The notes beneath the pieces are model-generated. The model was not told the DNA's origin. It ran no database searches and saw only the letters and a list, made by a program, of their open reading frames with translations. Made by a program: the position numbers and the translations under genes. 35,160 bases of DNA from Chitinophagaceae bacterium (GTDB taxonomy: Bacteria > Bacteroidota > Bacteroidia > Chitinophagales > Chitinophagaceae), in NCBI GenBank assembly GCA_043745055.1, contig JAYTTM010000061.1, positions 1 through 35,160 on the forward strand, written 5' to 3'. Below, one piece after another: positions 8,136 through 35,160 of the stretch; position 1 is the stretch's first letter; the number at the start of each line of letters is the position of its first letter.

Positions 8136-8954
8136 TTAAAAACCGTTTGCCGCTGATCGGCTTTGAGTGTCAGCCTCTGCTATTAAATAATATACGCAAG
8201 TGGTTAAATAATTTCTTACAACCGGTATCGCACTTACCAAACCTAGCTGCTGCAATGGCTTCCAGCCAAACTTGTAGGTATAAATCGGGTTGATAAAATA
8301 GTGCATTTTATTCACCACTTTGTAACCTGTGGTTGCTACAATTTTTTCAAATCTTTCTATACTAATACCTGTTTCTTTAATCTCTGCAAAAGATGCTACA
8401 TCCTGTTTAAAAAATTTCAACAGGCTTTTGTAAGCAGCCATCGGTAACAAATGAAAGTAAGGAAGTTTGCTTAGCAACTTATTTGTCATCACCTGCTGGT
8501 GTCCGCCAAAAGGCATTTGCCAGGGTGGAAAACCAAAGAAGATTACACCCGACGGATTCAACAATCCTTTCATCCACCCAATCAGTTTTTCCTGGTTGTG
8601 TATATGTTCAATTACATCCTTTAAAATGATGATATCGAACCTGCCCCTTAACTCCAACTCTACATCTACGTTGTAAATATCTTTTGATACAAAACTAATT
8701 TTCCCTTGCGCCAGTTCATCGTTCATAAACTCACGAGCAAGTACCAATCTAGGTTCATCCAGTTCTACGCCTACTGTTATACAACCCTTTTCAGTAAAGG
8801 CTTTCAGCACACCAGCTTCGGCACAACCAATTTCCAGCACCCGCATGCCTGGCATGATAGTCATATACTTTTCTACAAATGGCACAATGTAACTACGGGC
8901 ATTTTGTGCCTGCATTTCAAAATATCTTTTTTTATCTGTGTGAAAATCGAACAT
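8136..8954 (-). CDS. Class I SAM-dependent methyltransferase
   Basis: VLEIGCAEAG motif I, FDIIILKDVIEHI, LLNPSGVIF. Confidence 0.88.
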   Translation of the reverse strand: MFDFHTDKKRYFEMQAQNARSYIVPFVEKYMTIMPGMRVLEIGCAEAGVLKAFTEKGCITVGVELDEPRLVLAREFMNDELAQGKISFVSKDIYNVDVELELRGRFDIIILKDVIEHIHNQEKLIGWMKGLLNPSGVIFFGFPPWQMPFGGHQQVMTNKLLSKLPYFHLLPMAAYKSLLKFFKQDVASFAEIKETGISIERFEKIVATTGYKVVNKMHYFINPIYTYKFGWKPLQQLGLVSAIPVVRNYLTTCVYYLIAEADTQSRSAANGF

Positions 8955-8958
8955 TGCT

Positions 8959-9066
8959 ATAATTGATAATTGGATAGTTGATAGTTAATAGTTAATAGTT
9001 AATAATTGGATAATTGATAGTTGATAATTGGATAATTGATATTTGATAATTGGATAATTGATAATT
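8959..9066. repeat. Degenerate 7-8 bp tandem repeat (AATTGAT/AGTTGAT/AGTTAAT/AATTGGAT)
   Basis: About 15 consecutive units visible between the parE 3' end and the methyltransferase start codon. Confidence 0.9.
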
Positions 9067-9074
9067 TTCACTCA

Positions 9075-9182
9075 GCAAACACTTCAATTATTCTTAAACC
9101 TGCCTTAACCCCCCTTTAGGGGATGGGGGCAAACACTTCAATTATTCTTAAACCTGCCCTAACCCCCCTTTATGGTATGGGG
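9075..9182. repeat. 54-bp tandem duplication carrying a CCCCC..GGGG hairpin; second copy overlaps the parE stop
   Basis: GCAAACACTTCAATTATTCTTAAACCTGCCYTAACCCCCCTTTAKGGKATGGGG at 9075-9128 and 9129-9182, 3 mismatches. Confidence 0.9.
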
Positions 9183-20000: not shown

Positions 20001-20983
20001 TTATTAATTGTTGCTATTTTATAAGAAGGGCCATCAAATGTGGTAATAAGCACCGGTGCCTGCAATATGAGGTTGCGAAAACGCTGTTCGCTTTCTTCAA
20101 TTTTTATTTTGGCAGTTGCCTCTTGTGTAATATCCTGTAGTGTTCCATTAAAACGATAAGCTTTTTTATCATCTCCAAACCATGCTTTTCCTTTGGCCCG
20201 TACAATACGTTCTTGTTTGGTTATAGGGTTAATTATGCTGTATTCAACATCGTAAAACCCTCCGGATTCATATTCCAAAGCTGTTTGTACAGCTTGCGAA
20301 ACACGGCTTCTATCGTTTTCAGCTATCAGGTTTATTCCAATGGAAATGTCAATTTCCTCTCCATTCGGAAGGTAGAACCATTCTTTAAAGTAGTGGTTAC
20401 CAATAAATTTATTTGTTAATGGATTAAAATCCCAGGTACCTAATTGGGTTGCTTCAATAGCAAACGCTAACTGATCATTGGTTTCTATTAATTTTTTAAG
20501 ATTGTTAACTTTATCCGTTGTTTCAATGAGGGTTAAAAATACGCCCGCTGTTTCATTGCTTTCGTTTTTAACAGGGCTAAAGCTGAAAGTCCAATATGCA
20601 TCTTTCATTGCTCCTTCACGATATATGGGAACAAACTGATCTTCACTCCAGGTGGCTTCACCCACCTTAAGCACCTGATCAATCGGAGGTTTTAAAATAT
20701 GCCATGTTTCTGGCCAGGCTTCTTCGGCTTTCATCCCCAATAGTAAAGGGTGCTTACCATCGTTACCCAAGCTAAAGCGGTAGGCATCGTTGTAAAAACA
20801 AACCAGGTTGGGGCCCCAGTATAAGAACATCGGAAATTTCGAGTTAAGCAAAATGCTAAGGGTAGTACGAAAGCTTTGTGGCCATTTATCTGCCGGGCCA
20901 ATGGAGGAAGTTTCCCAGTTGTAGGCCCGCATTAAAGCACCCATTTCGCCACCGCCTGAAAGAAATTGCAAAGATTTTGTCAT
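17066..20983 (-). CDS. Cytoplasmic multi-PAS sensor histidine kinase (HK1)
   Basis: Repeated PAS/PAC units; H-box ASHEMKTPLT, N-box NAVKYSP, G1 DFGIGM, G2 GLGIGL. No TM segments. Likely start ATG 20983 (MTKSLQFLSGGGEMG). Confidence 0.92.
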   Translation of the reverse strand: MTKSLQFLSGGGEMGALMRAYNWETSSIGPADKWPQSFRTTLSILLNSKFPMFLYWGPNLVCFYNDAYRFSLGNDGKHPLLLGMKAEEAWPETWHILKPPIDQVLKVGEATWSEDQFVPIYREGAMKDAYWTFSFSPVKNESNETAGVFLTLIETTDKVNNLKKLIETNDQLAFAIEATQLGTWDFNPLTNKFIGNHYFKEWFYLPNGEEIDISIGINLIAENDRSRVSQAVQTALEYESGGFYDVEYSIINPITKQERIVRAKGKAWFGDDKKAYRFNGTLQDITQEATAKIKIEESEQRFRNLILQAPVLITTFDGPSYKIATINKKALEIWGKSYEQVINKPLFEVSPETEDGLKAIFSNIYTTGEPFIANEYMVQLKRPEKPDTAYFNSVYQPLRNLDNKIYGIISIGTEVTEAVNARKQIEARTALLQKEHQLLQNYFIEAPAFFVILKGKDHVFEFANTMYHQLIGNRDILGKKMMEVLPELKGQGFDVLVDEIHRTGKPFSGKEMPAFIEQEKGKLKQIYIDLHCQAIKNDEGYIEGILIFGYDVTELVVARKQIEASEKLFSNILSQSIMAIGILKGTDMVVTFANDSLLATWGKGQNIIGKPLLEVMPEIKDQGFPQLLQQVYTTGVPFYGYETKVTLIRNGKEEPVYYNFVYQPYTEVDNSIAGITILATEVTEQVLAKKQIEESEEEQKKSASHLKMATDSANIGIWSLDIVSSKLEWSNIHKVMWGYDENCVDLTYEDWHKVIVPEDKEMAFQKIEESKANNGVYEVEYRINKADDNVIRSIRSVGKYYYNEKGEAETLTGISVDITEEKQAEEALRKSKERLQGGLNVANVALAEINYHTGLVSLSPEAALMYGLPADNLTVTRKQLHDTFHPDWKQDVEKHIEQVIKPEGSGLMEVEHQIVLPGGEVRWLKINKQFFFDRTVQPAKPLYSILAAQDITAKKEAEEKIKESVAKFRTLSETIPIMVWTADPDGKKNFFNQYFLSYTGLSFEELKSDGMLEIIFPDELKKDLQLWQHSIKTGEDFKMEKRLRRHDGTYRWHLGHGIAQKDINGKITGWIGSNTDIHEQKTKEQQKDEFISIASHEMKTPLTTAKGYLELLILLLSEENQTAFLYANKANQSVERLHRLVTELLDASKIQNGKLNYNISTFDFNEMLDEAIQDIQVIAKNHIIQKTGSSLKQITGDKGRLQQVLINLLNNAVKYSPKADRVLVKIEEQDNKIQVSVQDFGIGMSIKHLDKIFDRYYRAQEHAISFQGLGIGLYISNNIIERHNGTLWAESEPDKGSTFYFTLPV

Positions 20984-21548
20984 TGAATTTTGTTTAGCAA
21001 AACTGTCAAAGAATAATGACACAATAAAAATAAAGGCTTGATGCAGGGCTGTAATTTTATAATGTTCAGTACAACACTTAAGCCGATTGGTAACCTGCCG
21101 ATGAAGTTAGCCAATAAAGTCTAAAAGAATTGGGTAAAGACCGATATAATTTGATAAGAGTACAAACAAATATTTTATTTTCTACTTTAATCTTATTGCA
21201 AGTCTTCTGTTATCAATTTCATTTCTTTTTAGGTGGGTGAGTTTTAGCTTTGCAACTCAATAATTTTATAAATGCAATTGTATAACTCCGTCCTTTTTTA
21301 TCATTCAAATAAATTAAAACAGCGTATAATAAATATTTCCGTTGTATGAGGTTGTGAACGATTGGTAACGACATCTTATATTTTATGGTGATGTAAACTT
21401 TTTGGCTTTGCTATAACTGCCTTTGCAATAAAATAGTAAAAAAGCAAAAAACCGGATGGAGCTTCAAGAGGCAACGTTGCCAAAACTGATGCAGCCAACT
21501 TTAGTTTAATCAGCATTTGCCGAACGGTACCTTCGTTACTTAAAAAAG

Positions 21549-21576
21549 AATAGTTGGGAAATTATTCCCAACTATT
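21549..21576. terminator. Perfect 12-bp hairpin, probable (bidirectional) terminator
   Basis: AATAGTTGGGAA-ATTA-TTCCCAACTATT flanked by A-rich and T-rich runs. Confidence 0.65.
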
Positions 21577-21755
21577 TTATTGCTTTATTAATTGCCCGGC
21601 TACTGACTAACACACAGGTTTGTTGTAAACTTCAACTTCACCTTCACTTCTTAATAATCGTTAAATTTTGGTATAAATTGTAACGCTCTCCGTATGTTAC
21701 AACTCTTTCCAAAATTTTAATTTTCTACTTCCAAAAGTTTTTTTTTATCCACCAC

Positions 21756-22007
21756 CTACTGCCTATCACTTTTTATTATAGTAGTTTCTTTATTGGTATT
21801 ACCACGCAGCAATGCTATCAATATTACCAATAATACAGCGCCTCCTACTATCCACATCCAGGGCTCAATTTCAAAATTATTTGTTTTGGTTGTAACTGTT
21901 GTGCTGGTATGGGAAACAGCGTCCTGGCTCCAGGCCATCAATTGCATTGCAGACAATACAATGAGCAGCAAAAATTTATTTGCTGCATTGAAAGTTAATT
22001 TTTTCAT
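21756..22007 (-). CDS. Small membrane protein (signal peptide plus one TM segment)
   Basis: Signal peptide ending MAWSQ, Thr-rich linker, PWMWIVGGAVLLVILIALLRG TM segment. Confidence 0.75.
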   Translation of the reverse strand: MKKLTFNAANKFLLLIVLSAMQLMAWSQDAVSHTSTTVTTKTNNFEIEPWMWIVGGAVLLVILIALLRGNTNKETTIIKSDRQ

Positions 22008-22402
22008 TTTAATTGTTTTTAATGATTTTTAATAATAAAGAAGCTGTTAAATAATTGTACCAATCTATTAAATACAAGGTCTTATTATTTTCAGTACCCC
22101 TTTGTGGAAATAGTTCTACAATCCATTTTTATATTACACGATTTGCAAGTATTTTTCAACTTCGTTCAATTATGGAAAAGAGAAGTAATAAGCGCTAAGC
22201 CTATCAAACAGGTAAACAAATTAGTAGCATTAAAATACCAGGCAGCGTTTTCTCGGGGATGGAAGTTATGTTGGGCAATATATATTGGCAGCTACGGCTA
22301 TAATAAATTTACCGCTAATGAATTTTACGTATTGTTGCTGCAAGGCATTATATGATAAATGCCACTCGCAAATATTTCAATTGTAGGTTCATTTTAATGT
22401 CA

Positions 22403-22783
22403 TTAGTTAACTTCCAAAGTTCTCTCACCTGTATATGTTTTTATAGTTTCAATAAAAGTATTAACAGCAAATGGTTTTTCTACAAAGCCATCCGCATTTA
22501 CTTTTCTGCAAATTTCTTTAATATCAGCATTGGCAGAAAAAATTAGTACTGGAATATTTTTTGTTTCTTCATATTGCTTTACAGTTTCTATAGCTTTTTC
22601 CCCGCCAATTTCCGAAATCCACAAGTCCATTAAAATAAGATGGGGTTGTATTGACTTTATATCATTTAAAATATTTTCACATCGGGATAATGTTTCTACA
22701 ATAAATCCATACTTGCTTAATATGGCTTTGCATAAGAGTAAAATTTCTTCATTATCATCATAAATAAGGATTTTCTTTTTCAT
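22403..22783 (-). CDS. Single-domain response regulator (receiver)
   Basis: ILIYDD, LILMDLW (phospho-Asp), FSA and FVEKPF; lies directly downstream of HK2. Confidence 0.92.
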   Translation of the reverse strand: MKKKILIYDDNEEILLLCKAILSKYGFIVETLSRCENILNDIKSIQPHLILMDLWISEIGGEKAIETVKQYEETKNIPVLIFSANADIKEICRKVNADGFVEKPFAVNTFIETIKTYTGERTLEVN

Positions 22784-22819
22784 AGTAGTAAAGCTATGTT
22801 ATAAAAAATATTTGAATAG

Positions 22820-25800
22820 TTATACCGGAAGTGTAAAATAAAATATACTTCCTTTTTCCCGTTCACTTTTGGCAAACATTGTACCATTGTGCCTTTCTAT
22901 TATATTATACGATATATACAATCCAATACCCAATCCCTGAAAATGTATAGCATGTTCCGGCACCCGGTAGTACCTGTCAAAAATTTTATTTAAATGCTCG
23001 TTCGACATGCCAACGCCAAAATCCTGAACCGACACCTGAATTTCACCATCCAGTTCTTCTATTTTAACTGATACTTTATCCGCATTGGGAGAATATTTTA
23101 TAGCATTACTTAGTAAATTAATCAACACCTGTTGCAGCCTGCCTCTATCGCCGGTTATTTGTTGAGAACAGCTGCCGGTTTTTTGTATGTTGTGGGTTTT
23201 TGAGCTGTACTGAATATCTTCAATGGTTTCATTTACCATTTTATTAAAATCGAATGTGGTAATAGTATAATTTAGTTGACCATTTTGTATTTTACTGGCG
23301 TCTAATAATTCTGAAACCAAATTGTGCAGCCGCTCTACTGCCTGGTTGGCTTTGGTTGCATATAGAGTAGTTTGATTTTCTTCACTTAATGTAAGCAGCA
23401 GTAACTCAATATAACCTTTGGCTGTTGTAAGCGGAGTTTTCATTTCATGGCTGGCAATGCTAATGAACTCGTCTCTTTGTTTCAATAATTTTTCAGAAAG
23501 TTTTTGAGCTGCCTCCAGTTCACTATTTGCTTTAATAAGGGATCTATTACTTGTTGCAAGCTCTATTGTACGCTTTTCAAACGTAATGTCTCTAAGAAAG
23601 GCAATAAACAATTTTTTTCCCTGCTGCATTGCCTGCGAAATAGTGATTGATATTGGAAACTCTTTACCGTTTTTATTAAGCGCTGTAAGTTCTAATGTTT
23701 TATTTAAAATCCTTGCTTCGCCTGTTTCCAACAATCGTTGCATTCCATCCCGGTGAGCCTGCCGATGTTGTGTTGGAACAATGGTGTCTGTTAAATGCAA
23801 TCCTACAACTTCGGCTGCTTTCCATCCAAATATTTCTTCTGTTTTAGGATTCCATAAGCTTATAATACTATTTTCATCAATTACAATAACGCCATCGGGA
23901 GCATTGCTGATTATCTGGTTTAGATAATTTTCTTTTTCTACTAATGCATCGGCTACTGCCACATCCTTGCTAATATCCTGCACAGTACCAATCAGCAAAC
24001 GTTTAACACCCTCATCTAAAAAATTTCCGCTTGAACGGAAGTATTTGATAGTTCCTTTCTTACTTATAATTCGGTAAGGTGTTTCTACCAACTCTCCTGT
24101 TATCATTGTTTGCTCACCGTTACTAACTACCTGTTGCAAATCATCGGGGTGTATAAAAGATAAAAACTTTTCAAATGAGGGGACAAACTCATCCGGTTCA
24201 CAATCCAATAAACGAAATAGGTTATCAGAATATTCCAATGCACCCGTTGTTATATTCCATTTATAACTTCCAAATTTTGCAATGCTTTCAGCAAGCTCAA
24301 ATGTTTGATTTTGTAGTTGCAATTGCTCATTTACAGTTTCTACTTCTTTTTGTTTTAAAACAATATTGGTTACATCCTGTAAGGTTCCCACTAATAATTT
24401 TTCATCGCCTGATTCTATAACTCTTCCGGTTCCTTTTATATTTATGACTTGTCCGTTTTTGGTGTTCATCCGATAGTGCCATTCATCAGCCGTTTTGCTT
24501 GTTAAAACTTTTTCCGCTGCCTGGGTCACATAGTCGCTGTCTTCAGGATACACATGTTTATTAAATTCTTCCAACGAAGGTTCAAATTCGTTTGGTTCAT
24601 ATCCTATAAGACGGTATAAATTATCGGAGTAAGTTAATTTGCCTGTTGTTAAATTAAATGAATAGCTGCCCTGCATTGAACTTTCTTCTGCCTGTTTGAA
24701 GGTTTCATTCTGTATGTGAAGTTGGTAGGTTCGTTCTTTTACTTTTTGTTCCAATTCTTCAGCAATTTTTTTCTGCCCCTCTATGCCAGTATTGGTGCCA
24801 ATCCATCCAATAACATTTCCATTCTTGTCTTTTTGAGCAATGCTATGACATAAATGCCACTGGTAGGTTCCGTCATGATAACGAATGCGCTTTTCAATTC
24901 TGTAGTCTTCTCCAGTCCTCAGAGACTTGTGCCACAGTGCTAATTCATTTTCAAGGTCTTCAGTAAAAATAACTACCTTCCAGCCATCATCTTTTAATTC
25001 TTCAAAAGATAACCCCGTATAATCTAAAAAATATTTGTTGAAAAAATTTTTCTTCCCATCGGGTGTGGCTGTCCATACCATGTGTGGAATGGTTTCTGAA
25101 AGCATTTTAAATTTTGCTTCGCTTGCGGCAAGTTCTTCTTCTGCTTTTTTCCGTTCGGTAATGTTGCGGTTTACAGCAACTCCAGCAACGGGTTTTCCTT
25201 TTTCGTCATATACATTAGCTATTGATACAAGTATGCTCACCATGCTGCCATCCTTTTTTGTCTGCACTACTTCACCTTGCCATTTGCCGATGCTATTAAA
25301 ATCTCTTTGCCATGCATACTTATCTTCATCAGATAAAAATTGGGTGCGGAGAAGTTCCAATGGAAATTTCCCCATGACTTCATCGCTTGTATATCCATAC
25401 AAATTTTCTGCCCCTTTGTTCCAACTGATAATTTTATAATCCATATCAGTGCTTACTACTGCATCGGCAATATTTTCTGTGAGTATTGCAGCAAAACGTA
25501 ATTGTTGATTAGCTTCTTCAATTTGTTTGCGTGCTTCAAACTGTTGGGTAACTTCCACTGCATGTGATAATAATCTTTCTGTTTTACCATTTTCATCCTT
25601 CATTGGCTGCACTACAAGATTATAATAACCCAAAACTAATTTGCCGGTTTCTTTATTAATTAATTCAACAGGAAATTCATTAGCGATGAAAGGCACGCCG
25701 CTTGAAAAAACAAGATTAAGAATATCTATTAATCCCTGTTGTTCTACTTCTGGAAAAAGCTCCTGAACAGTTTTGCCGGGGGGTGTTTTTCTATCGACCA

Positions 25801-26824
25801 ATTTTTCGTATTCAGTGTTGGCAAATTCATAAATATGAGTATTACCATGCATAATGGCAATTCCTGCGGGTGCATTCATGAATGAATTGTAAAGCACCAT
25901 GCGCTCATTTCTTAAATGCTGTTCGCTTTGGGTAAGCAACCGGCGGGCAACTATTTCTTCTGTAACATCCTGCAGGGTTCCATTAAACCTATATGCGATA
26001 CCTTCTTCATTAAAAGAGGCCCGCCCTTTTGCCCGTACAATTCTTTCATATTGTGTTTTTGGATGAATGATTGTATAAATAATATCGTAATGCCCTCCGG
26101 AAGCAGGTTGTAAAGCTGTTTGAATTGCGGATATTACCTTGTCCCTTTCGTCATTTGCAATAACTGCCAGGGCAACCGGCAATTCTATTTCTTCGTTAGC
26201 CTGTAGCCCAAACCATTCTTTTAAACGGCTGTTGCCTCTAAATTTATTGGTGGCAGGGTTTAAATCCCAGGTTACTAATTCTGTAGCTTCAATGGCATAT
26301 TGCAATTCTTGTTCACTTTCTTTAAGTACGTTTACTGATTTTACTTTTTTGGTAGTTTCCATTACGGTAACCAGCACGCCACCTACTTCACCATCTTGTA
26401 AACGTATAGGACTGTAGGAGAAATCAAAAACACATTCTTCTAAAAACCCATGCCTTTCTAATTGGAAAGTAAGGTTGGAAAAGCTAACTGGTATGCCCTT
26501 CATCACGCCATCAAACATTGGCCCTATTGTAGGCCATACTTCTGCAAAAGTTTTACGTGTGCTGCTGCCCAATGCGTGCGGATGTTTTGTGGCACCAAGA
26601 AAAGGACAGTAACCATCGTTGTACAATTGAATATATTCGTTGCCCCATGCTATATACATTCCGAAAGGAGAATCGAGCATTATATTTACTGCAATACATA
26701 AACTTTGCGGCCATGTATCAGGACAGCCAATAGCGGTTTTTGACCAATCAAACGAACGGATAAACTCTCCCATTTTGCCGCCACCAGTAAGAAAGGCAGG
26801 TGGTATTTTTTCTTTCGCTTTCAT
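22820..26824 (-). CDS. Cytoplasmic multi-PAS sensor histidine kinase (HK2)
   Basis: Repeated PAS/PAC units; ASHEMKTPLT, NAIKYSP, DFGVGM and GLGIGL; paralog of HK1. Confidence 0.92.
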   Translation of the reverse strand: MKAKEKIPPAFLTGGGKMGEFIRSFDWSKTAIGCPDTWPQSLCIAVNIMLDSPFGMYIAWGNEYIQLYNDGYCPFLGATKHPHALGSSTRKTFAEVWPTIGPMFDGVMKGIPVSFSNLTFQLERHGFLEECVFDFSYSPIRLQDGEVGGVLVTVMETTKKVKSVNVLKESEQELQYAIEATELVTWDLNPATNKFRGNSRLKEWFGLQANEEIELPVALAVIANDERDKVISAIQTALQPASGGHYDIIYTIIHPKTQYERIVRAKGRASFNEEGIAYRFNGTLQDVTEEIVARRLLTQSEQHLRNERMVLYNSFMNAPAGIAIMHGNTHIYEFANTEYEKLVDRKTPPGKTVQELFPEVEQQGLIDILNLVFSSGVPFIANEFPVELINKETGKLVLGYYNLVVQPMKDENGKTERLLSHAVEVTQQFEARKQIEEANQQLRFAAILTENIADAVVSTDMDYKIISWNKGAENLYGYTSDEVMGKFPLELLRTQFLSDEDKYAWQRDFNSIGKWQGEVVQTKKDGSMVSILVSIANVYDEKGKPVAGVAVNRNITERKKAEEELAASEAKFKMLSETIPHMVWTATPDGKKNFFNKYFLDYTGLSFEELKDDGWKVVIFTEDLENELALWHKSLRTGEDYRIEKRIRYHDGTYQWHLCHSIAQKDKNGNVIGWIGTNTGIEGQKKIAEELEQKVKERTYQLHIQNETFKQAEESSMQGSYSFNLTTGKLTYSDNLYRLIGYEPNEFEPSLEEFNKHVYPEDSDYVTQAAEKVLTSKTADEWHYRMNTKNGQVINIKGTGRVIESGDEKLLVGTLQDVTNIVLKQKEVETVNEQLQLQNQTFELAESIAKFGSYKWNITTGALEYSDNLFRLLDCEPDEFVPSFEKFLSFIHPDDLQQVVSNGEQTMITGELVETPYRIISKKGTIKYFRSSGNFLDEGVKRLLIGTVQDISKDVAVADALVEKENYLNQIISNAPDGVIVIDENSIISLWNPKTEEIFGWKAAEVVGLHLTDTIVPTQHRQAHRDGMQRLLETGEARILNKTLELTALNKNGKEFPISITISQAMQQGKKLFIAFLRDITFEKRTIELATSNRSLIKANSELEAAQKLSEKLLKQRDEFISIASHEMKTPLTTAKGYIELLLLTLSEENQTTLYATKANQAVERLHNLVSELLDASKIQNGQLNYTITTFDFNKMVNETIEDIQYSSKTHNIQKTGSCSQQITGDRGRLQQVLINLLSNAIKYSPNADKVSVKIEELDGEIQVSVQDFGVGMSNEHLNKIFDRYYRVPEHAIHFQGLGIGLYISYNIIERHNGTMFAKSEREKGSIFYFTLPV

Positions 26825-27801
26825 AATTAATCAGTAAATTTTGTGAGCATTCATTTTTTGATTTTTTAAATACAAATATTTTGACGAGGAAGAAAACGAT
26901 TTTAAACTTATTTGTTTTTGTACAGGTGATTGTGCGCTGAAAAATGTAAGTATTTGAAACTCTTTCAGCCTTTCCGTGTTGCTTTTATTAATGTAATACG
27001 TATAAAAAAAATTTGTAAAGTTGCTTTAGAAATCCTGGTTTAAAAGCTGTACTGAAACATAGACCATTCCTGAACCTAAAGATATTACTTTCTGTAATTT
27101 TTTAAATGGCTGTAACCAACCTGCGAATGCCCAAACGCCAACTGCTGTTGAGTTGTATCCGGAAGACGAAGCTTTAGGTATGTGTTTGCCATTATTTTTA
27201 TTGTTAAGTAATAACTTCATTCCCTTTGTTTTTGAAAAGATAAAAAGAACTTTTAAAAATTACCAACTTTAATCAAAATTAATAACAATTATATGGCAAA
27301 GAAAACAATTTTTTATTTTTAATTACAACAACCAACAGGAATTTTTTTTACTGGTATTTGCCCACTCAATAGTTTCCACAATTTTTAGGGTACAAAGTAT
27401 TTTAATAAAATTATCCCTAACAGTACTACTATAAACAAAATCAAAAGCAGCTACTTACAACTGTTATAACCGGGTATAAGAAAGAAAGACTTAGACAATA
27501 AAAATTATACTATAAAGCAGAAATAAAAAAAAAGATTTTTTGGGGAAGTAGGCTCATCGCTTATCTGCTAAATTTGGAAATGGTAATTTAAGTTAAAGTG
27601 GCTTTATTGTTGCGGCTTTTTTGAGTAGTTTTTGCACTGATATAAACAGTAGCAGAATCATCTAAATCTTTCTGACCAATGCTTTAGCTACCCACTATTG
27701 ATGAGGCTGATACAAACCCAATAACCTGGAGCCTGATTTTAAATTTAACTACATTATTTTTTGATTTTTATCTTAATTACATTGCCCGGCGTAATAATCA
27801 T

Positions 27802-28671
27802 TTAAACTGGCAATGTAAAATAATATATGCTGCCTTTATCCGGTTCACTTTCTGCCCACATTTTACCGTTTTGTCTTTCTATAATATGGTGAGATATGTA
27901 CAATCCAATACCCAATCCCTGAAAATGAATAGCATGTTCCTCCACCCGGTAGTACCTGTCAAAAATTTTTATTTAAATGCTGGTTAGAAATACCGACACC
28001 AAAATCCTGCACCGGCACCTGAATCTTACTATCCAACGCTGCTATTTTAACCAACACTTTATCTGCTTTGGGAGAATATTTTACAGTATTGCTGAATAAA
28101 TTTATCAGTACCTGTTGCAGCCTGCCTCTATCACCTGTTATTAGTTGCAAACTGTATCCTGTTTTTTGTACGCAATAATTTTTAGCAGTATGTTCAATAT
28201 TTTCAATTGTTTCATCTACCATGGTATTGAAATCGAATGTGGTAATATTATAATTCAGTTTGCCATTTTGTATTTTACTGGCGTCTAATAATTCTGTAAC
28301 CAGGTTGTGCAGCCCCTCTACGGCCTGATTGGCTTTTGTTGCGTAAAAAACAGTTTGGGTTTCTTCACTTAAGGACAGCAGCAGTAACTCAATATAACCT
28401 TTGGCAGTTGTAAGCGGTGTTTTCATTTCATGGCTTGCAATGCTAATGAAATCATCTTTTTTTGTTCCAACATTTTTTGTTCATTAATGTCAGTGTTGGT
28501 TCCTATCCATCCTGTTATGTTTCTCTCATTGTCTTTTTGTGCAATGCTCTGGCTCAAATGCCAGCGGAAAGTTCCATCATTGCGGCGAATGCGAATTTCA
28601 AGTATGAAATCTACACCTGTTGCAAGGGTGAGCTGCCATTTATTTTTTTCCTTCGCTATTTTGTAATGCAA
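27802..28671 (-). pseudogene. Truncated, doubly frameshifted third paralog of the PAS histidine kinases (HK3)
   Basis: Half PAS (RRNDGTFRWHL...GWIGTNTDI), frameshift in a homopolymer near 28460, HisKA/HATPase segment, second frameshift near 27966, then KIFDRYYRVEEHAIHFQGLGIGL...FTLPV* ending at 27802. Confidence 0.85.
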
Positions 28672-29404
28672 ACTTAATTATGTTCGGGTTATTTGTTTAA
28701 ATTTTAAACAAATTTGTAGTTTGATTATTGTTTAGAAAATTCACAAAATAACATTTATGGTAGCTGCTTTTTCTTTTCTACAGTAACAGCGTCTCTTCAA
28801 TTATATCTTTTGTTGGATGTTGATTTTACGTTTTAACTGCAATTAACTTTTTGAGCTTGATGAAAAAACCAAAATAGATATAAATTGTTTTGCAGATTAA
28901 CAAAAAGCATGTTACAGATAGTAATTAAATACTTATCTGGTTTAGCCGCACCCGGCTTACCTGCAGCTCAATTAATTGAACTTTAAACAGACTGTACCTG
29001 TTTTTATTAATGACATAGATGAAAGAAAAGACGCAGATAAAAAGCGGGATGCAGAAACGCAGGAATGTATAAACGAGGCAATGAGTTTTGGGCAGCATTT
29101 ACAAAATTTGCAAAGAGGGCAAATGGCCTAAGCAGGCGTTCAACGATACTAAAATTATTGACATAAACTAAATCTTACCGCCTGCAAAGTTAAAAGTGAT
29201 ACATCAAAAACTTAATGCGCTAAGTTTTTTTAAAGCTATCTGTTTTTATTACCAGTTGTTTGTTGATGATGCCACTGGATGTATTAATAAAAAACTTGTT
29301 TAAAAAAAACAAAGTACTCGTTATAACAGGTATAATATTTTTAAGGGATTACGTTTTTTTCCGGCAACAAGGAGACACAGCACGGAGTCCGGCGCCTGTA
29401 GGCC

Positions 29405-29438
29405 AAAAAAAACCCCCGCCAACCGGCCTGGGGATTTT
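29405..29438 (-). terminator. Probable intrinsic terminator of the FN3 gene
   Basis: GC-rich imperfect stem (CCCCCGCC-AACC-GGCCTGGGG) followed by T8 on the minus strand. Confidence 0.55.
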
Positions 29439-29464
29439 AAACAGTTGTAGCAAATGCAATTACA

Positions 29465-30106
29465 TTAAGCTGCTTTTGCCGCTGCCATGGTACGTTGCAT
29501 TACGTACTGGGCCACTTCGCCGCTTTGCACCGTTTGCCCGTTGCTGCCAATAGCAATCACCCTTATCCAGTACTTTTGCCCTTCTTCCAGGTTGGTAAAT
29601 TCAAATTTTGTACGGGTATCCCCGTAAGTTTCCCATTCTGTTGTATCAGTAATTGGGTCTTTGGCAATTTGGTAATTGAAAGCCTTTGCACCTTTAACAG
29701 GATCAATAACCGCCAGCAGTGTACAAGGATTATCTCCCTGATTTACCGACTTAATAAAAGGAGCTACCAACTTAGCAGGTTCCCTTTGTTTTGCCAGTTT
29801 AAAATTACTACTGTTGAGTTTATCAAGATTGCCCTGGCACACTGTATTTACATACATTGCCCAGTTTCTTAACCCATTTGCCACAGTAGCTTTTAACGTG
29901 TTTTTACGGCTTACCGCCTGCAGGTCTTTATTACCTGCATCGGTGAGTGCAGTTTCATAATCGGTAGTGGTTGTTACAAAAGCAGCAACTGCAGGTACAG
30001 GTGCAGTAAAATTGGGGTTATTATCCATGTGCTGGATAATGATCAGGGCAAAAGACAGCATTTCGGCATCTTTCAGGTTGTTGCAATCAACGATTACTTT
30101 TTCCAT
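29465..30106 (-). CDS. Helical-domain plus fibronectin type III protein, no signal peptide
   Basis: N-terminal NPNF..P.P helical region; C-terminal FN3 (PVKGAKAFNYQ...FTNLEEGQKYWIRVIAIG). Likely start ATG 30106 (MEKVIV). Confidence 0.8.
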   Translation of the reverse strand: MEKVIVDCNNLKDAEMLSFALIIIQHMDNNPNFTAPVPAVAAFVTTTTDYETALTDAGNKDLQAVSRKNTLKATVANGLRNWAMYVNTVCQGNLDKLNSSNFKLAKQREPAKLVAPFIKSVNQGDNPCTLLAVIDPVKGAKAFNYQIAKDPITDTTEWETYGDTRTKFEFTNLEEGQKYWIRVIAIGSNGQTVQSGEVAQYVMQRTMAAAKAA

Positions 30107-30332
30107 TATTAATTTTTTAATGCTGGTTGAAATTTGCAAAAAACGCCTGCTCTCCTATTATTATTAATTAACAATATAATTGTAAACTGCTAAAAAAAAC
30201 GGTTAAACAATTGAAATATTATTACAAATTTTTGATAATAACTATATTATAAACAAACAAGTAACCAGCTGCACAATAAAAAGTTTTTTTAAATTGAGGG
30301 AAACTACAGGTAGTTTTCGTAAAAATACTAAC

Positions 30333-30395
30333 CCGTAGGCTTGTTACCCTACGACCATAGGCTTGTTACACTACGACCGTAGGCTTGTTACCCTA
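30333..30395. repeat. Three tandem 22-bp GTAG-type REP-like palindromes (third incomplete)
   Basis: CCGTAGGCTTGTTACCCTACGA / CCATAGGCTTGTTACACTACGA / CCGTAGGCTTGTTACCCTA; the unit folds CGTAGG against CCTACG. Confidence 0.85.
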
Positions 30396-30639
30396 TTGGC
30401 TTAAAATGGTAATAAATTGATGTTATAAAAAAGAAGATGATTACATAACCAGGCAAAAGAAAAGCAAATAAATAAGTAAAGGGTGAGTAATATACGCTCA
30501 AAATCTTTCGTATATTTAATGACATTACATGTGTCACATTAAAAAGCGCAAGTAGGCAGTTTCGTTTAATGAGTGACAAAATATAAACCTGGCTAAAAAG
30601 AATAGATTAAGGGAAAATAATTTTGGAGAAATGTGGACT

Positions 30640-30670
30640 TGCGGCTATTTTAACGTTAGCGGTAAGCGTA
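30640..30670 (+). other. Array-proximal recombination point (attI-like or secondary site)
   Basis: GTTAGCGGTAAGCGT at 30655 complements the ACGTCTAACCGCTAAC that ends cassette 1, but it is not preceded by the 180-bp element body. Confidence 0.55.
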
Positions 30671-30725
30671 TTGGACGACACAGACATATTAAACGAAAAA
30701 ATATTTACTAAAAATTGAAAAATAA

Positions 30726-31163
30726 ATGGAGCTTAAAACCATAGAACTAAATGTTGACCAGTCGAAGGAAATTTATGCCTCCACAAACTGCCAACAATTA
30801 ATCAATTCTATGAAAGGTTTATATCCAAAAATTGGCTTCAACAAACCTTGGGTTGGGTATTTCGCTTTTAATCATAATCAAGTTGTTGGAACTGGAGGTT
30901 TCACAGGACAACCCAAAGGCGGAAAAGTTGAAATAGCATACTGGACATTTAAAGAATTTGAAGGTCAAGGAATTGCTTCTTTTGTCTGTAAGCAACTTAT
31001 TACAATTGCCAAAGCAACTGACCCTGACATTATAATAACAGCTACAACTGCACCGGAAAATAACGCTTCAACAAAAATTTTACAGAATAACAGATTTACA
31101 TTTACCGAAATAGTGAAAGATGACGAAATTGGCGATGCTTGGTTATGGACACTTGACAAATGA
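30726..31163 (+). CDS. GNAT/RimJ-type N-acetyltransferase (cassette 1)
   Basis: VGTGGF...VEIAYWTF..FEGQGIAS...NNASTKILQNNRF motifs. Confidence 0.88.
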   Translation: MELKTIELNVDQSKEIYASTNCQQLINSMKGLYPKIGFNKPWVGYFAFNHNQVVGTGGFTGQPKGGKVEIAYWTFKEFEGQGIASFVCKQLITIAKATDPDIIITATTAPENNASTKILQNNRFTFTEIVKDDEIGDAWLWTLDK

Positions 31164-31214
31164 AAATAAAAACTTTGAATTGACACAAAGATTGATGAAC
31201 GAGAAGAACGTCTA

Positions 31215-31420
31215 ACCGCTAACAAAGGTATTGCTGCAAGCAGGGCACGTTGTTATCTTCGGCTGCGGTTAGCTATCAGCATCGGTTGGGGCAGAATCAG
31301 CACCTTTGGGCTTTTGTTTGTAATCTTTTTATTTTTATATTTTTATTCATCAGCGGTTGGGGGCAGACACAGCAATTAATTCCCTGCCTGCAGCAATACC
31401 CAATCGATGTGCGATATACT
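31215..31420 (+). repeat. attC-like element 1
   Basis: ACCGCTAAC core; arms GGTATTGCTGCAAGCAGGG (31227-31245) and CCCTGCCTGCAGCAATACC (31382-31400) pair at 18/19; the right core reads GATGTG at 31406. Confidence 0.8.
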
Positions 31421-31464
31421 AAAAGATAGTTTAGGTTTGACAACTAAATTATTAAAAAAACATT

Positions 31465-32346
31465 TTGAAAAACTTACTCTTTTTAGCATTGCTATTTTCT
31501 GCCTGCAAGCGAAACGATACGCCAGTTTACCAAACTCCTACATTTGAATTTGCACAACCAACCAAGGTTAACATTCAAGGATATAGCGGTAATATCATGG
31601 AGCCGTTTCTTTCAAGAGACGGAAATATTTTATTGTTTAATAATCTCAATGCAGCTCCTGAAAATACAAATCTTCATTGGGCAACTAAAATCAATGATAC
31701 AATTTTTCAATATAAGGGTGAAATTGCAGGAGTAAATACATCGGATTTAGAAGGTGTGCCAACCTTAGACAACACAGGAAATTTATATTTTGTTTCGCTT
31801 CGTAGTTATGCATCTACCCTTTCTACACTGTATCAGTGCAATTTTTCTAATGGTACAGCAACAAATATTCAATTAGTTACAGGAGTTAGTAAATTACAGG
31901 CAGGTTGGCTAAATTATGACATAGAAGTAAGTGCGGACGGGCAAAATATTTATTTTGTAGATGCACAATTTGATCAGACAAATAATCCTGCATCAGCCGA
32001 AATAATTATTGCAGAAAAAAATGTGTCAGGTTTTCAAAGATTGTCAAATAGTGCCGAAATAATGAAAAACATCAATACAAATGCACTTGAATATGCAGCT
32101 TGCATTTCTGTGGATCAACTTGAATTATATTTTACAAGATTAGCAATACCTTTTAATGCCACTTCGTCTCCAGAAATTTTAGTTTCAACAAGGAAAAATA
32201 AGAATGAACCATTCAGCAGCCCCCTAAAAATTGCAAGTATTACGGGCTTTGTAGAAGCCCCTACTATTGCACCAGACCAAAGGACTATCTATTATCATAA
32301 GAAAGAAAATAATAAATTTGTACTTTATTTAATCAGAAAGAAATAA
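31465..32346 (+). CDS. Lipoprotein with TolB/PD40-like beta-propeller repeats (cassette 2)
   Basis: TTG start, lipobox LFSAC, repeated P.LS.DG..L.F-type blades (PFLSRDG, VSADG, ISVDQLELYF, PTIAPDQRTIYY). Confidence 0.75.
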   Translation: MKNLLFLALLFSACKRNDTPVYQTPTFEFAQPTKVNIQGYSGNIMEPFLSRDGNILLFNNLNAAPENTNLHWATKINDTIFQYKGEIAGVNTSDLEGVPTLDNTGNLYFVSLRSYASTLSTLYQCNFSNGTATNIQLVTGVSKLQAGWLNYDIEVSADGQNIYFVDAQFDQTNNPASAEIIIAEKNVSGFQRLSNSAEIMKNINTNALEYAACISVDQLELYFTRLAIPFNATSSPEILVSTRKNKNEPFSSPLKIASITGFVEAPTIAPDQRTIYYHKKENNKFVLYLIRKK

Positions 32347-32350
32347 TGCC

Positions 32351-32559
32351 AGTACATCGCACAACATGGGGTTTTGCAATTTTGGGGCAGCGTTGTAATT
32401 TTCATCATTAGCAATATGGCAGCAGTTGTTCGGGCACAAGCATCGCTGGGCTTTTGTTCGTTAACTTGTACTTTATATTTTCAATTTAGCTTTGGTTCAG
32501 GGCAGGATCAGCATCAAATTCACTAACCTTCGGCAATGCAAAACGTTGTGTCCTATACT
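32351..32559 (+). repeat. attC-like element 2
   Basis: Begins 4 nt after the stop with AGTACATCGCACAAC and ends GTTGTGTCCTATACT (G at 32545). Shares the internal GGGCTTTTGTT...TTTATATTTTCAAT...GGGCAG...CAGCA body. Confidence 0.75.
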
Positions 32560-32624
32560 ATTTTACGCCGATTCCCTGCAAATCAGACATGAAATAATAT
32601 AATTGTAAATACTTTTGATAATAA

Positions 32625-33272
32625 ATGAGAAATATAAAAGCCATAATTTTTGACCTTGACGGAACTTTAGCTAACACATTACCTCTTTGCATTCAGGCAT
32701 TCCGGCAATCTGTTGAACCTCTTATTAACCGTTCTATTTCTGACTCTGAAATTATTGCAACGTTTGGACCTTCAGAAGAAGGAACAATAATGGCATTAGC
32801 ACCTAGTCATTATGAAAAAGGAGTTTTAGACTACCTGCATTTCTATGAAAGTTTACATGAAATGTGTCCTGTTCCTTTTGAAGGGATTAAAGAAATTTTG
32901 GAGACTTTAAAAACCAAAAAAATTCATATTTCAATGGTAACGGGTAAAGGAAAATATAGCACAAACATTTCTTTAAAATATTTTGAGCTTACTCATTTTT
33001 TTGAAATCATTGAGACTGGTTCGCCTAATGGCGCAAGAAAGGAAGAAGGCATTAAGACTATTTTAAAAACATTAGGAAACGTAAACTGTAATGAAGTAGT
33101 CTACATTGGAGATGCTGCCAGTGACATTATTGCGAGTAGAGAAGCTGGAGTTTCAGTTGTTGCAGCAGCATGGGCAGACACTGCTGAACCCGAAAAATTA
33201 AAAGAGCTAAAACCAGATCAATTGTTTTACACTATTAAAGATTTTTCAAATTGGTTGTCTGACAAAATATGA
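32625..33272 (+). CDS. HAD-family hydrolase, phosphoglycolate phosphatase-like (cassette 3)
   Basis: IIFDLDGTL motif I, VTGK motif II, YIGDAASDI motif IV. Confidence 0.9.
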   Translation: MRNIKAIIFDLDGTLANTLPLCIQAFRQSVEPLINRSISDSEIIATFGPSEEGTIMALAPSHYEKGVLDYLHFYESLHEMCPVPFEGIKEILETLKTKKIHISMVTGKGKYSTNISLKYFELTHFFEIIETGSPNGARKEEGIKTILKTLGNVNCNEVVYIGDAASDIIASREAGVSVVAAAWADTAEPEKLKELKPDQLFYTIKDFSNWLSDKI

Positions 33273-33295
33273 ACAGTCATCATATGCACGAGAGA

Positions 33296-33506
33296 AGTAA
33301 AGCACACAACAAAAGTATTTGCAAAAGCAGGGCTGGACAATGTAACATCACCTATGTGCAAGCATCATCAGTGGTTCGGACTCGACGTTCAATATCCAGC
33401 TTTAGTTGTTAACTTCAACTTTATATTTTCAATTGGGCATTAGTACCGGGCAGATACAGCAATGAATTCCCTGCCTGCAGCAATACCCGATTGTTATGTG
33501 CACCCT
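33296..33506 (+). repeat. attC-like element 3
   Basis: AGTAAAGCACACAAC ... CAGCAATGAATTCCCTGCCTGCAGCAATACCCGATT-GTTATGTGCACCCT (G at 33493). Confidence 0.8.
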
Positions 33507-33613
33507 ATCGCACAGTCTTCAGCTTCGGCGGAAAGACCAATAACATAAAAAAAACGTAACACTAAAAATTATGCAAAGCCATAATAATTTTGTAAAAAAT
33601 AAAATAAAAACAA

Positions 33614-33958
33614 ATGACTAATTATTCTATCATCGCTCAAGTTATTGTTGCTTTGTCAATAGCATATGTTTGGATATTTCATTTTGATAATATCGTTAAG
33701 GAATTTAAACAATATGGCTTAAGTGATTTAACCCGTACCATAGTAGGTTCTTCTAAAATAGCTTTATCAACATTGTTGGTTGCAGGTATTTGGTATCCGG
33801 ATTTGGTACTTATACCGGCATTACTTATCGCATTTCTTATGTTATCAGCACAATTTTTCCATTTTAAAGTGGGTAATCCATGGCAGAAACATATGCCATC
33901 TTTATTCCTACTAATATTAAGTCTTTTCATAATAGCTGTATCACTAAAATTAATATAA
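33614..33958 (+). CDS. DoxX-like membrane protein (cassette 4, gene 1)
   Basis: Four hydrophobic segments; EFKQYGL...VG..KI and LMLSAQFFHFKV motifs. Confidence 0.75.
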   Translation: MTNYSIIAQVIVALSIAYVWIFHFDNIVKEFKQYGLSDLTRTIVGSSKIALSTLLVAGIWYPDLVLIPALLIAFLMLSAQFFHFKVGNPWQKHMPSLFLLILSLFIIAVSLKLI

Positions 33959-33960
33959 AA

Positions 33961-34305
33961 ATGAACGTAGTTACTGTGCTGATTTTAATTTCAAGTCTGT
34001 CTTTTTTGGGTTATGGAATAGCATATTTTATATCACCACAAATTAAAAATGAATTCAAACGGTTTGGGCTTGAGAAAGTAGGAACACTTATCGCAGTTTT
34101 AGAATTATTGGGCGCAGTGGGTTTGCTGGTAGGTTTAAAGATTCAACTTATTTTATTGATTTCTGCAGGAGGCCTGGCGATATTAATGTTTTTAGGTGTT
34201 GCAATCAGGATAAAAGTTAAAGACAGCCTTTGGATATCATTGCCTGCCTTGTTTTTTATGATATTAAATTCATGTATTTTTTTGATGTCGCTGCGTTATA
34301 CTTAA
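33961..34305 (+). CDS. DoxX-like membrane protein (cassette 4, gene 2)
   Basis: Start ATG 33961 (MNVVTVL); EFKRFGL...LELLGAVGLLVG...LMFLGVAIRIKVKD; paralogous to the upstream gene. Confidence 0.78.
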   Translation: MNVVTVLILISSLSFLGYGIAYFISPQIKNEFKRFGLEKVGTLIAVLELLGAVGLLVGLKIQLILLISAGGLAILMFLGVAIRIKVKDSLWISLPALFFMILNSCIFLMSLRYT

Positions 34306-34436
34306 TAATCTATTTGTGCAATTCTATGGCTGGTTATTTAGAAAAAAACTACTGCTAAAATATAATTGTAAGTTTATTTTATCTCGTATTAACATAGTGC
34401 ATTTAAGTGATTGATAATTTTTAAATTAATAACGTA

Positions 34437-34622
34437 ATGTTTAAAAAATTTACAACAACTGATAAATTATTATTTATCGCAGCATTTCTTTCGCTTATTT
34501 TTTCAGAAATATTATATTTCAAGGGAGAAGCCAACGTCGCCATATTTATTGGTATTTGGGTACCCTCTATATTGGCTTTCGGAATTTATTTAAGACTTAT
34601 AAGCAACAGTAAAAATGACTGA
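34437..34622 (+). CDS. Small two-TM membrane protein (cassette 4, gene 3)
   Basis: 61 aa, hydrophobic, AIFIGIWVPSILAFG motif. Confidence 0.7.
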   Translation: MFKKFTTTDKLLFIAAFLSLIFSEILYFKGEANVAIFIGIWVPSILAFGIYLRLISNSKND

Positions 34623-34713
34623 AATAATACCATATTTCGCAGGCCTGATTACATTATTATTCGCAACAGGCTTTTTATTGGCGTTAAGAGAAATGAGAAA
34701 ACAAAAACTCTGA
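34615..34713 (+). CDS. 32-aa single-TM microprotein (cassette 4, gene 4)
   Basis: Read by hand: MTEIIPYFAGLITLLFATGFLLALREMRKQKL*. The ATG overlaps the previous gene's end (ATGACTGA). Confidence 0.6.
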   Translation: MTEIIPYFAGLITLLFATGFLLALREMRKQKL

Positions 34714-34807
34714 ATGCTCATCTGGTTAAGGCAATTATTTAATCTGCATAGGCAACACAAAATGCGATTACTTCAATTTATCAGAACCATCACAAAACTG
34801 AAAGAAA

Positions 34808-35019
34808 AGGGCATGCACATAACAGGCGGTTTGGCAATATGGTGGCACGTTGTTAGGGTCGGCATTTTATCGCTATCAGCAGCGGTTTAGGCGGAAGGAT
34901 TTCTGTTGTGCTTTTAGTTGTTACCTTATACTTTAATTTTTCAATCGGTTTCAGTTCCGGGGCTTCACCAGCAATGAATCCCCTGCCTGCAGCAATACCA
35001 AATCGTTGTGTGCAAGCGT
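34808..35019 (+). repeat. attC-like element 4
   Basis: AGGGCATGCACATAAC ... CAGCAATGAATCCCCTGCCTGCAGCAATACCAAATC-GTTGTGTGCAAGCGT (G at 35005). Confidence 0.8.
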
Positions 35020-35070
35020 AGCGGATGCCCTAAGTAACCTCAACATTCTTTATATTCGCACTCAAAAATT

Positions 35071-35160
35071 ATGGCGTTAAGTTGGAATGAAATAAAAGAT
35101 AGAGCCTTAAACTTTTCAAAAGAATGGGCAGACACTTCCAACGAAGAAGCAGACGCAAAA
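35071..35160 (+). CDS. N-terminus of a probable MmeI-like (Type IIL) restriction-modification enzyme / DNA methyltransferase (cassette 5, partial)
   Basis: MALSWNEIKDRALNFSKEWADTSNEEADAK resembles the N-terminus of MmeI/YeeA-family proteins. Only 30 codons are visible. Confidence 0.65.
   Translation, partial: MALSWNEIKDRALNFSKEWADTSNEEADAK

Follow-up and report, generated by a model that had tools for sequence, protein, structure and literature searches.

The closest layout to the locus described here is found in sedentary chromosomal integrons with the integrase IntI, in superintegrons, especially those of the co-oriented (inverted-integrase) type, and in clusters of attC sites lacking an integrase (CALINs). 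The IntI insertion is stated to be necessary for integron recombination in the available text of Cury 2016 and of the archaeal integron paper, and the former does not accept recombinases lacking it as integron integrases. Surveys requiring the insertion see almost no integrons in Bacteroidetes; the IntegronFinder 2.0 survey, as far as its available text goes, gives one complete Bacteroidetes integron, in Salinibacter. The stretch analyzed here, called the window, is the complete 35,160-nt contig JAYTTM010000061.1 (C61) of a Chitinophagaceae genome (GCA_043745055.1, handle G000; 5.0 Mb in 1189 contigs). The elements between the genes at its right end very probably serve as recombination sites of cassettes arrayed as in an integron, with crossover at G|TT, and the array is likely driven in trans by a tyrosine recombinase that lacks the insertion. 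The system operates in the manner of an integron but falls outside the IntI family. No publication describing it could be found in a literature search that left out supplements and most subscription papers.

Four homologous elements were aligned at the places given in the initial annotation, with a mean column identity of 72%. Their AAC triplets start at 31221, 32363, 33308 and 34821 and their right cores at 31406, 32545, 33493 and 35005. Re-measurement of the spacing between AAC and the right core gave 182, 179, 182 and 181 nt, identical to the earlier values. A GTT right core had been assigned to every element and is present in elements 2 to 4, but element 1 reads GAT at 31406, which probably impairs this site. 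Likewise, a position shortly after a stop codon had been described for all of them and does not apply to element 4, which lies about 200 nt past the nearest stop. The separated genes are functionally unrelated and all on the + strand, as had been noted (GNAT, PD40 propeller, HAD and two DoxX genes). The features are as follows:

30500..30657, + strand: attI-like primary insertion site, GTT at 30655-30657, putative crossover at G|TT
30655..31405, + strand: cassette 1, GNAT acetyltransferase gene (30726-31163; Pfam Acetyltransf_3) and site
31209..31420, + strand: attC-like site 1, AAC 31221, right core 31406 = GAT
31406..32544, + strand: cassette 2, PD40/beta-propeller lipoprotein-like gene (31465-32346; Pfam PD40) and site; ends match at 13/15 positions
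32351..32559, + strand: attC-like site 2, AAC 32363, GTT 32545
32545..33492, + strand: cassette 3, HAD hydrolase gene (32625-33272; Pfam HAD_2) and site; ends match at 13/15 positions
33296..33507, + strand: attC-like site 3, AAC 33308, GTT 33493
33493..35004, + strand: cassette 4, DoxX-like genes (33614-33958 and 33961-34305; Pfam DoxX_2 twice), small membrane open reading frame (34437-34619) and site
34809..35019, + strand: attC-like site 4, AAC 34821, GTT 35005
35005..35160, + strand: start of cassette 5, open reading frame from 35071, cut by the contig end

The genome was searched with an iterated nhmmer profile built from the four window elements. In total, 141 matches were detected, of which 84 were strong and full length, and the reversed genome gave none. 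Both cores could be placed in 74 matches, with 181-193 nt from AAC to GTT in 73 of these. The matches are spread over 63 contigs, 19 with a single match and 44 with several, and in 43 of the latter all matches lie on one strand. The sole mixed-strand contig (C71, 2.7 kb) carries two arrays facing each other. The longest open reading frame (ORF) is co-oriented with the sites in 55 of 66 cassettes and opposite in 7. The copies are thus arrayed and co-oriented rather than solitary or randomly placed. A site is located at or near a contig end in 45 of the 63 contigs, and the sites are therefore regarded as the reason why such genomes fragment into small contigs. A search of window positions 30000-35160 against Rfam with E values up to 1 gave no match. 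A profile of 65 canonical attC sites did not match this genome either, this profile being narrow and based on sequence only. Together with the IntegronFinder 2.0 survey, this gives indirect support to the suggestion of the initial annotation that standard attC models may miss these sites.

Crossover at G|TT in integrons leaves the right arm of a site at the start of the cassette itself. For the cassette-end test, each left arm was compared with the right arm of its own element and with that of the preceding element. Positions 4-9 are fully matched across the gene in 58 of 66 cassettes and within the own site in none of 71, while random pairing of arms yields a mean of 3.04 of 6 matched positions, with a maximum of 3.61 in 10,000 shuffles. 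Cassette ends never match at position 11, beyond which pairing resumes at positions 12-15 (0.76-0.83). The four cassettes of the window all obey this complementarity. Cassette 1 begins at GTT 30655 without an element before it, and its first 9 nt pair with the left arm of element 1; in cassette 4, the first 10 nt pair without a mismatch with that of element 4. Arm pairing across the gene, and not within the element, is the integron signature of G|TT crossover. The test was validated on canonical sites: 57 cassettes beside true IntI genes showed the same excess of cassette over own-site pairing, without the fixed mismatch and the second stem.

The extent of the unit was further delimited by two repeated ORF-less cassettes, whose upstream arms differ (identity 0.51-0.61) and whose arm after AAC is kept (0.89-0.92). 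Since the downstream arm is the one retained, the mobile unit is the gene together with its downstream site. These comparisons show the mobile unit to consist of GTT-arm, gene, AAC-arm, inner arm, a spacer of about 140 nt and a second inner arm. The cassettes mostly hold a single gene, have a median length of about 650 bp and a GC content of 33% versus 37%. The start arm of the GNAT cassette is kept in three other genera, where it follows an attC-like arm or an attI-like site and has other neighbors; inspection by eye revealed it at 4 of the 12 loci with a homologue, the arm being a different one in one of them.

Three cassette starts are repeated in the genome of the window 6, 6 and 8 times, and two of these cassettes are ORF-less (about 245 and 191 nt). 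The first repeated start is located on contigs C273, C555, C1004, C343, C352 and C183, the second on C188, C598, C964, C1119, C926 and C1051, and the third on C253, C301, C323, C449, C563, C844, C941 and C972, where the assembly always breaks. The first repeated ORF-less cassette resembles the central region of the site itself. The repeated ORF-less cassettes may represent stages in the birth of new cassettes, or else be selfish.

The structure of the sites was analyzed with 47 sequences, the four window sites and 43 sites from 20 fetched contigs. The inverted arms placed just inside the cores by the initial annotation are present and covary. The inner stem is paired at 93.4%, compared to 32-49% in slid controls, and 183 double-change cells were counted versus 58.8 in shuffled data, a value reached in none of 500 shuffles; relatedness among the 47 sites can inflate covariation, while the effect is large. 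The outer stem comprises 10 bp, a fixed mismatch and then 4 bp. Three fixed A.C mismatches on the top strand, found in 46/47, 45/47 and 47/66 sites, correspond to G.T wobbles on the bottom strand, and the bottom strand is the more stable one in 49 of 54 rebuilt stems. The whole elements of about 200 nt fold no better than shuffled sequences (z -1.5 to +0.95), and the T-rich center of about 140 nt has no specific fold. The structure resides solely in the terminal stems.

In a simple local alignment, no gap was needed between the inner arms of 54 of 74 sites of the genome and of 14 of 26 sites of the shorter, 121-nt type, versus 1 of 65 canonical sites, the other 64 having gaps or bulges; a minority of the sites of the present family do carry one bulge. 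Extrahelical bases in the inner arm, a trait of IntI sites, are thus mostly missing. The remaining attC layout is present, with conserved AAC and GTT, two paired arms, an unpaired central spacer and a variable terminal structure. Two size classes, with about 186 and 121 nt from AAC to GTT, are mixed within the arrays of relatives. The sites had been described as longer than canonical attC sites. This holds for the class of about 200 nt in the window, but the class of about 133 bp that relatives use for the same site lies within the canonical range, so that length is not a distinguishing feature. The core type GTTRKSK had to be replaced by the consensus GTT-R-NNN-G-NN-A, derived from 66 cassettes. 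In these, G at position 8 and A at position 11 are fixed and positions 5 (T in 26/66) and 6 (C or T in 38/66) vary, and the canonical RYYYAAC/GTTRRRY consensus is not followed.

Window positions 30500-30657 are 75% identical to the 160 nt behind a recombinase gene on contig C329, and this contig ends exactly at GTT. In total, four such attI-like sites were identified in the genome, on C329, C61, C227 and C1065 (decayed), the latter three without an adjoining recombinase of the family; several recombinase-less copies head arrays of their own. In the congener G667, the orthologous locus, consisting of an fn3-like gene and the attI-like site, is alike up to GTT and then continues with an unrelated gene. 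None of the cassette genes of the window was found in this 87% complete genome. Another attI-like site of G667 begins with a cassette that is located mid-array in the genome of the window. The initial annotation had asked whether gene order varies between close strains; between the genome of the window and this congener, the content differs, with the break at GTT of the orthologous site. These comparisons show the attI-like site as the point of entry of new units. In a read check, contigs assembled from four runs of one study, possibly the source sample, linked site 1 both to the attI-like site and to site 2. Of ten viral contigs with a match to the attI pattern, none had this recombinase or a site within 1.5 kb.

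Near position 30510 there is a one-mismatch match to the Bacteroidota -7 promoter box, a candidate cassette promoter. Such a match stands at the same position in 2 of 3 attI copies scanned, and a parallel scan for sigma-70 promoters was uninformative. A short inverted repeat (TGACA-N7-TGTCA, 30519-30537) is kept in the attI-like copies and is possibly a binding site of a regulator or of the recombinase. A 1-kb segment is duplicated with 93.5% identity (window 29364-30391 and C227:4301-5329). It carries the fn3-like gene (29465-30139, minus strand), and both copies lie directly upstream of a recombinase-less attI-like site, with the same layout in G667. Tandem repeats are found at 8952-9182 and 30330-30395 (22-nt units and a 54-nt duplication); three units of about 22 nt are located upstream of the attI-like site and are expanded in G667. 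Farther upstream, window positions 17066-28671 contain a pair of large PAS/histidine-kinase paralogues, which in parts share about 80% of their DNA sequence, and a response regulator, with a fragmented third copy at 27797-28671.

The candidate enzyme is the 410-aa tyrosine recombinase encoded on C329, directly followed by the attI-like site. It is one of 12 tyrosine recombinases in the genome. The other 11 were set aside; these are XerC and XerD (separate genes on C271 and C84), phage and integrative and conjugative element types, and a protein on C877, which is 45% identical yet falls outside the array clade. The candidate carries the Pfam domains Phage_int_SAM_4 and Phage_integrase, and its catalytic residues R261, K286, H351, R354, H377 and Y386 are invariant in 52 sequences. 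The insertion of IntI near patch III is missing, with 12 residues where VchIntIA has 54 (about 42 fewer); in the alignment it is absent from 22 of 22 array-type sequences and present in 8 of 8 IntI sequences. The score against the integron integrase model TIGR02249 is 188.8, below the cut-off of 265. An alignment-based structure model (pLDDT 87.7) has VchIntIA (2a3v) as its best Foldseek match. The best PDB match by sequence is XerA; in VIA-align comparisons, XerA reaches a Z score of 22.5 with a root-mean-square deviation (rmsd) of 15.3 and VchIntIA a Z score of 21.5 with an rmsd of 3.0. An extra N-terminal domain of about 90 aa matches the N-termini of UvsW and XPB at Z scores of 6.3-6.7, which is a lead only.

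The nearest relatives of the enzyme are encoded in metagenome-assembled genomes of Chitinophagaceae, and annotated phages yield matches of only 32-36% identity. In a tree of 35 sequences rooted with XerC/D, IntI (support 100/100) is nested within the array-type enzymes (96/93), while a monophyletic array clade was not rejected by the approximately unbiased test (p 0.087); the long IntI branch and the narrow sampling limit this tree. A close relationship of IntI and the array-type enzymes is supported.

The enzyme is present in 63 of 150 genomes of the family. When the site model was run on 80 of these 150, sites turned up in 30 of the 32 genomes that have the enzyme and in 26 of the 48 that lack it (Fisher p 1.3e-4, a significance exaggerated by kinship). 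In a set of 17 relatives picked for long contigs downstream of the enzyme, 126 site matches lie behind the gene on its strand and none on the opposite one, and in 10 of the 17 the first cassette starts 50-220 nt past its stop. Both results agree with the proposal that a recombinase tracks the element. These loci show that the gene of the putative array recombinase is located directly upstream of the attI-like sites and arrays, in the same orientation. In a phylum-wide sample, a relative of the enzyme was detected in 103 of 300 genomes, a number that overstates the distribution of the system, since some matches have no array; a first cassette stands behind the enzyme in 10 of 20 fetched loci.

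Canonical IntI shows a different distribution. It is absent from the genome of the window and from 16 of 16 family genomes. Full-length IntI above the cut-off occurs in 88 of the 300 sampled genomes, nearly all outside the class of the window, for which families f1-f18 of a kinship grouping of the sample were taken. Within these families, the insertion-less enzyme is present in 44 and IntI in 1 of 81 genomes. Among 20 IntI neighborhoods (L230-L249), none carries sites of the window type and 10 have at least three canonical-looking attC ends with bulged arms. The 88 of 300 genomes with IntI exceed what the cited surveys of complete genomes suggest; many of them may belong to classes filed elsewhere by NCBI.

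A Pfam family could be assigned to 18 of 46 cassette ORFs on the 20 fetched contigs. The cargo includes an Eco47II-type endonuclease with a C5 methylase, GmrSD, ParDE and two PIN proteins, furthermore GNAT proteins, peptidases and a chromate transporter. This resembles the arrays of sedentary integrons, with their genes without assigned function, toxin-antitoxin pairs and restriction systems. PADLOC gave no match for the five window proteins tested, nor did Pfam for the 30 residues present of the cassette 5 ORF.

The grammar of the window family recurs in a clinical resistance cassette. In class 1 integrons, the ends of the blaVEB-1 cassette match over 10 bp and are mismatched at position 11, and 122 nt lie between AAC and GTT in its veb1 site, which has one bulged base. 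Among the cassette sites of class 1 and class 2 integrons in four integron loci, it was the sole one matched by the profile of the 26 sites of the 121-nt type (E 7.5e-5). On three class 1 integron plasmids (L252-L254), the blaVEB-1/-18 cassette was observed with a 121-type site and the cassette-end pattern of the family, and aadB follows VEB in all three. On a Klebsiella plasmid with blaVEB-3 (L251:4133-5754), the identical cassette start stands behind an attI-like site and a 5'-truncated recombinase of the family. According to the available text of Aubert et al. 2012 (PMC3518468), IntI1 recombines the veb1 attC site precisely but about 50-fold more weakly than the aadB site; the inner boxes are described as divergent, and the site is treated there as an inefficient divergent attC whose origin is left unexplained. 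The weak use by IntI1 fits a site made for another enzyme, and these data, as far as that text gives them, are the only experimental evidence for G|TT recombination at a site of the window grammar. The clinical blaVEB genes likely came from the Bacteroidota cassette system, judging by these shared sites and ends.

The context of tet(X3) is similar, but less clean. On Acinetobacter plasmids (L212:6052-8170; L213), the gene lies 190 bp behind a 5'-truncated recombinase of the family with 46% identity, preceded by an attI-like GTT and followed by a left half-site (E 6.7e-9). Of the 6 test positions, only 3 agree between the two arms, and the cassette is therefore considered decayed or chimeric. 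A 'xerD' gene before tet(X3) is reported for up to 86% of the Acinetobacter genomes with tet(X3) in the part of the tet(X3) preprint available.

A Chryseobacterium plasmid (NZ_CP041688.1; L214:9773-19900) carries a recombinase of the family, followed by an array with sites of about 120 nt. One site has a group II intron in opposite orientation at its AAC, and another has an IS110 element beside it. IS1111-attC elements are known at attC sites. Group IIC-attC introns have been described there as well, going by a reference title in PMC8946536. A Chryseobacterium resistome paper reports 'XerD' beside resistance clusters and does not mention cassette sites in its available text (PMC11194056).

By analogy with CTX phage integration by XerC, and with the mechanism of IntI as summarized in the available text of PMC8946536, we infer that a cassette would be excised as a circle, whose two ends would rebuild the full site. 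Its bottom strand would fold into an outer stem of about 15 bp and an inner stem of about 18 bp, with a small bubble beside the AAC/GTT triplet. The recombinase would bind both stems, cut at G|TT and join the folded strand to the double-stranded attI-like site, and replication would resolve the junction, as shown for IntI. The fixed A.C mismatches and the N-terminal domain might perhaps replace the extrahelical bases and the insertion in strand selection. The window array hangs on a secondary attI copy and is predicted to be served by the C329 enzyme, the single family recombinase of the genome; such service in trans is likely.

The proposal of a divergent Bacteroidota cassette-capture system made in the initial annotation is supported by the arrayed, co-oriented copies, the change of content at the G667 attI-like site and the tracking recombinase. 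Several results count against the explanation preferred here. No relic of a recombinase could be detected at window positions 28501-30700, and the enzyme is encoded on another contig. The mutated core of site 1 indicates that parts of the window array may be frozen, and the advantage of the bottom strand is small, about 3 kcal/mol. With a strict script, the cassette signature was found at 0 of 12 GNAT and 0 of 5 HAD homologues. The four-run contigs, which cannot reveal circles, contained no G|TT crossover joint. Half of the 20 phylum-wide loci lack the first-cassette signature, five of these forming a separate clade. Furthermore, more than half of the enzyme-less family genomes analyzed bear sites, the near-complete G037 and G042 having more than 20 each, as CALINs do, and the congener G667 has sites and no match to the enzyme. 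Loss of the gene is taken as the cause; a second enzyme is an alternative.

The same cassettes and enzyme could operate on double-stranded sites in the manner of Xer and pdif, with every gene and every spacer lying between an inverted pair of sites and without a hairpin. This would suit an enzyme without the insertion said to be needed for integron recombination, and the association of one GNAT cassette start with unlike site bodies downstream of it among genera suggests exchange at both cores. Such a mechanism is nevertheless improbable, as the arms vary while compensatory changes keep their pairing, which points to selection for the structure and not for a sequence bound by protein, the inversions that inverted double-stranded sites should cause are rare in ORF orientation and contig strandedness alike, and the mismatch types favor one strand. 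Ordinary CALINs, mobilized in trans by canonical IntI or the host Xer proteins, with the insertion-less recombinase as a passenger or marker of attI, would agree with the weak activity of IntI1 on the veb1 site, the presence of IntI in part of the phylum and the genomes with sites and without the insertion-less enzyme. We consider this highly improbable, since IntI is nearly absent from the class of the window, its neighborhoods carry canonical bulged-arm sites and none of the window type, and the insertion-less enzyme is intact and fixed directly before attI across many families. Finally, the high copy number, the terminal inverted arms and the 19 single-match contigs would also be expected of repeats like miniature inverted-repeat transposable elements or repetitive extragenic palindromes, or of RNA structures between immobile genes. 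This is scarcely credible given that the outer arms pair across the gene and not within the element, that insertion at attI breaks at GTT, empty and filled sites being distinguished by the gene along with the element behind it, and that the bodies have no Rfam match and fold no better than shuffled sequences.

Beyond the integron-like array preferred here, a wider interpretation is put forward tentatively, with somewhat less than even expectation: the system may be a second, phylum-scale integron class and the living form of the IntI ancestor, filling Bacteroidia genomes with arrays of superintegron size that escape standard tools, and the source from which clinical Proteobacteria received blaVEB and probably tet(X3). 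IntI would then have emerged within this recombinase family through acquisition of the insertion. An insertion-less recombinase heads arrays in a large share of the Chitinophagaceae and in other families; should it be active, a platform for gene capture has been overlooked in a major phylum. The role of the IntI insertion and the origins of integrons would become directly testable, and an origin would be offered both for the blaVEB cassettes and for the 'xerD' gene that precedes tet(X3), so far without explanation.

Regarding the Xer systems, XerA is the closest PDB sequence, but the present sites have no fixed dif-like sequence and their own enzyme and attI. In the CTX phage, XerC acts on folded single-stranded DNA that rebuilds a two-arm site, and pdif modules are a further Xer-dependent case. 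The latter use fixed double-stranded sites in either orientation, whereas here the arms covary and are strongly co-oriented; a comparison with the dif consensus was not made. The 'Integron-like' subgroup of Smyshlyaev et al. 2021 (PMC8138268) includes insertion-less members, for which the available text gives no arrays, att sites or function. With the IntI integrons, the system shares the AAC/GTT triplets, the G|TT boundary, an attI beside the recombinase, complementary cassette ends, two stems split by a bubble, a long terminal loop and a bottom-strand bias in stem stability and mismatch type, and in relatives a catalytically intact recombinase is linked to an array, with insertion at G|TT of attI. 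It differs from them in the missing insertion, the extra N-terminal domain and the score below the TIGR02249 cut-off. What sets the system apart is its non-IntI enzyme, together with sites in which extrahelical bases are scarce and A.C mismatches are fixed.

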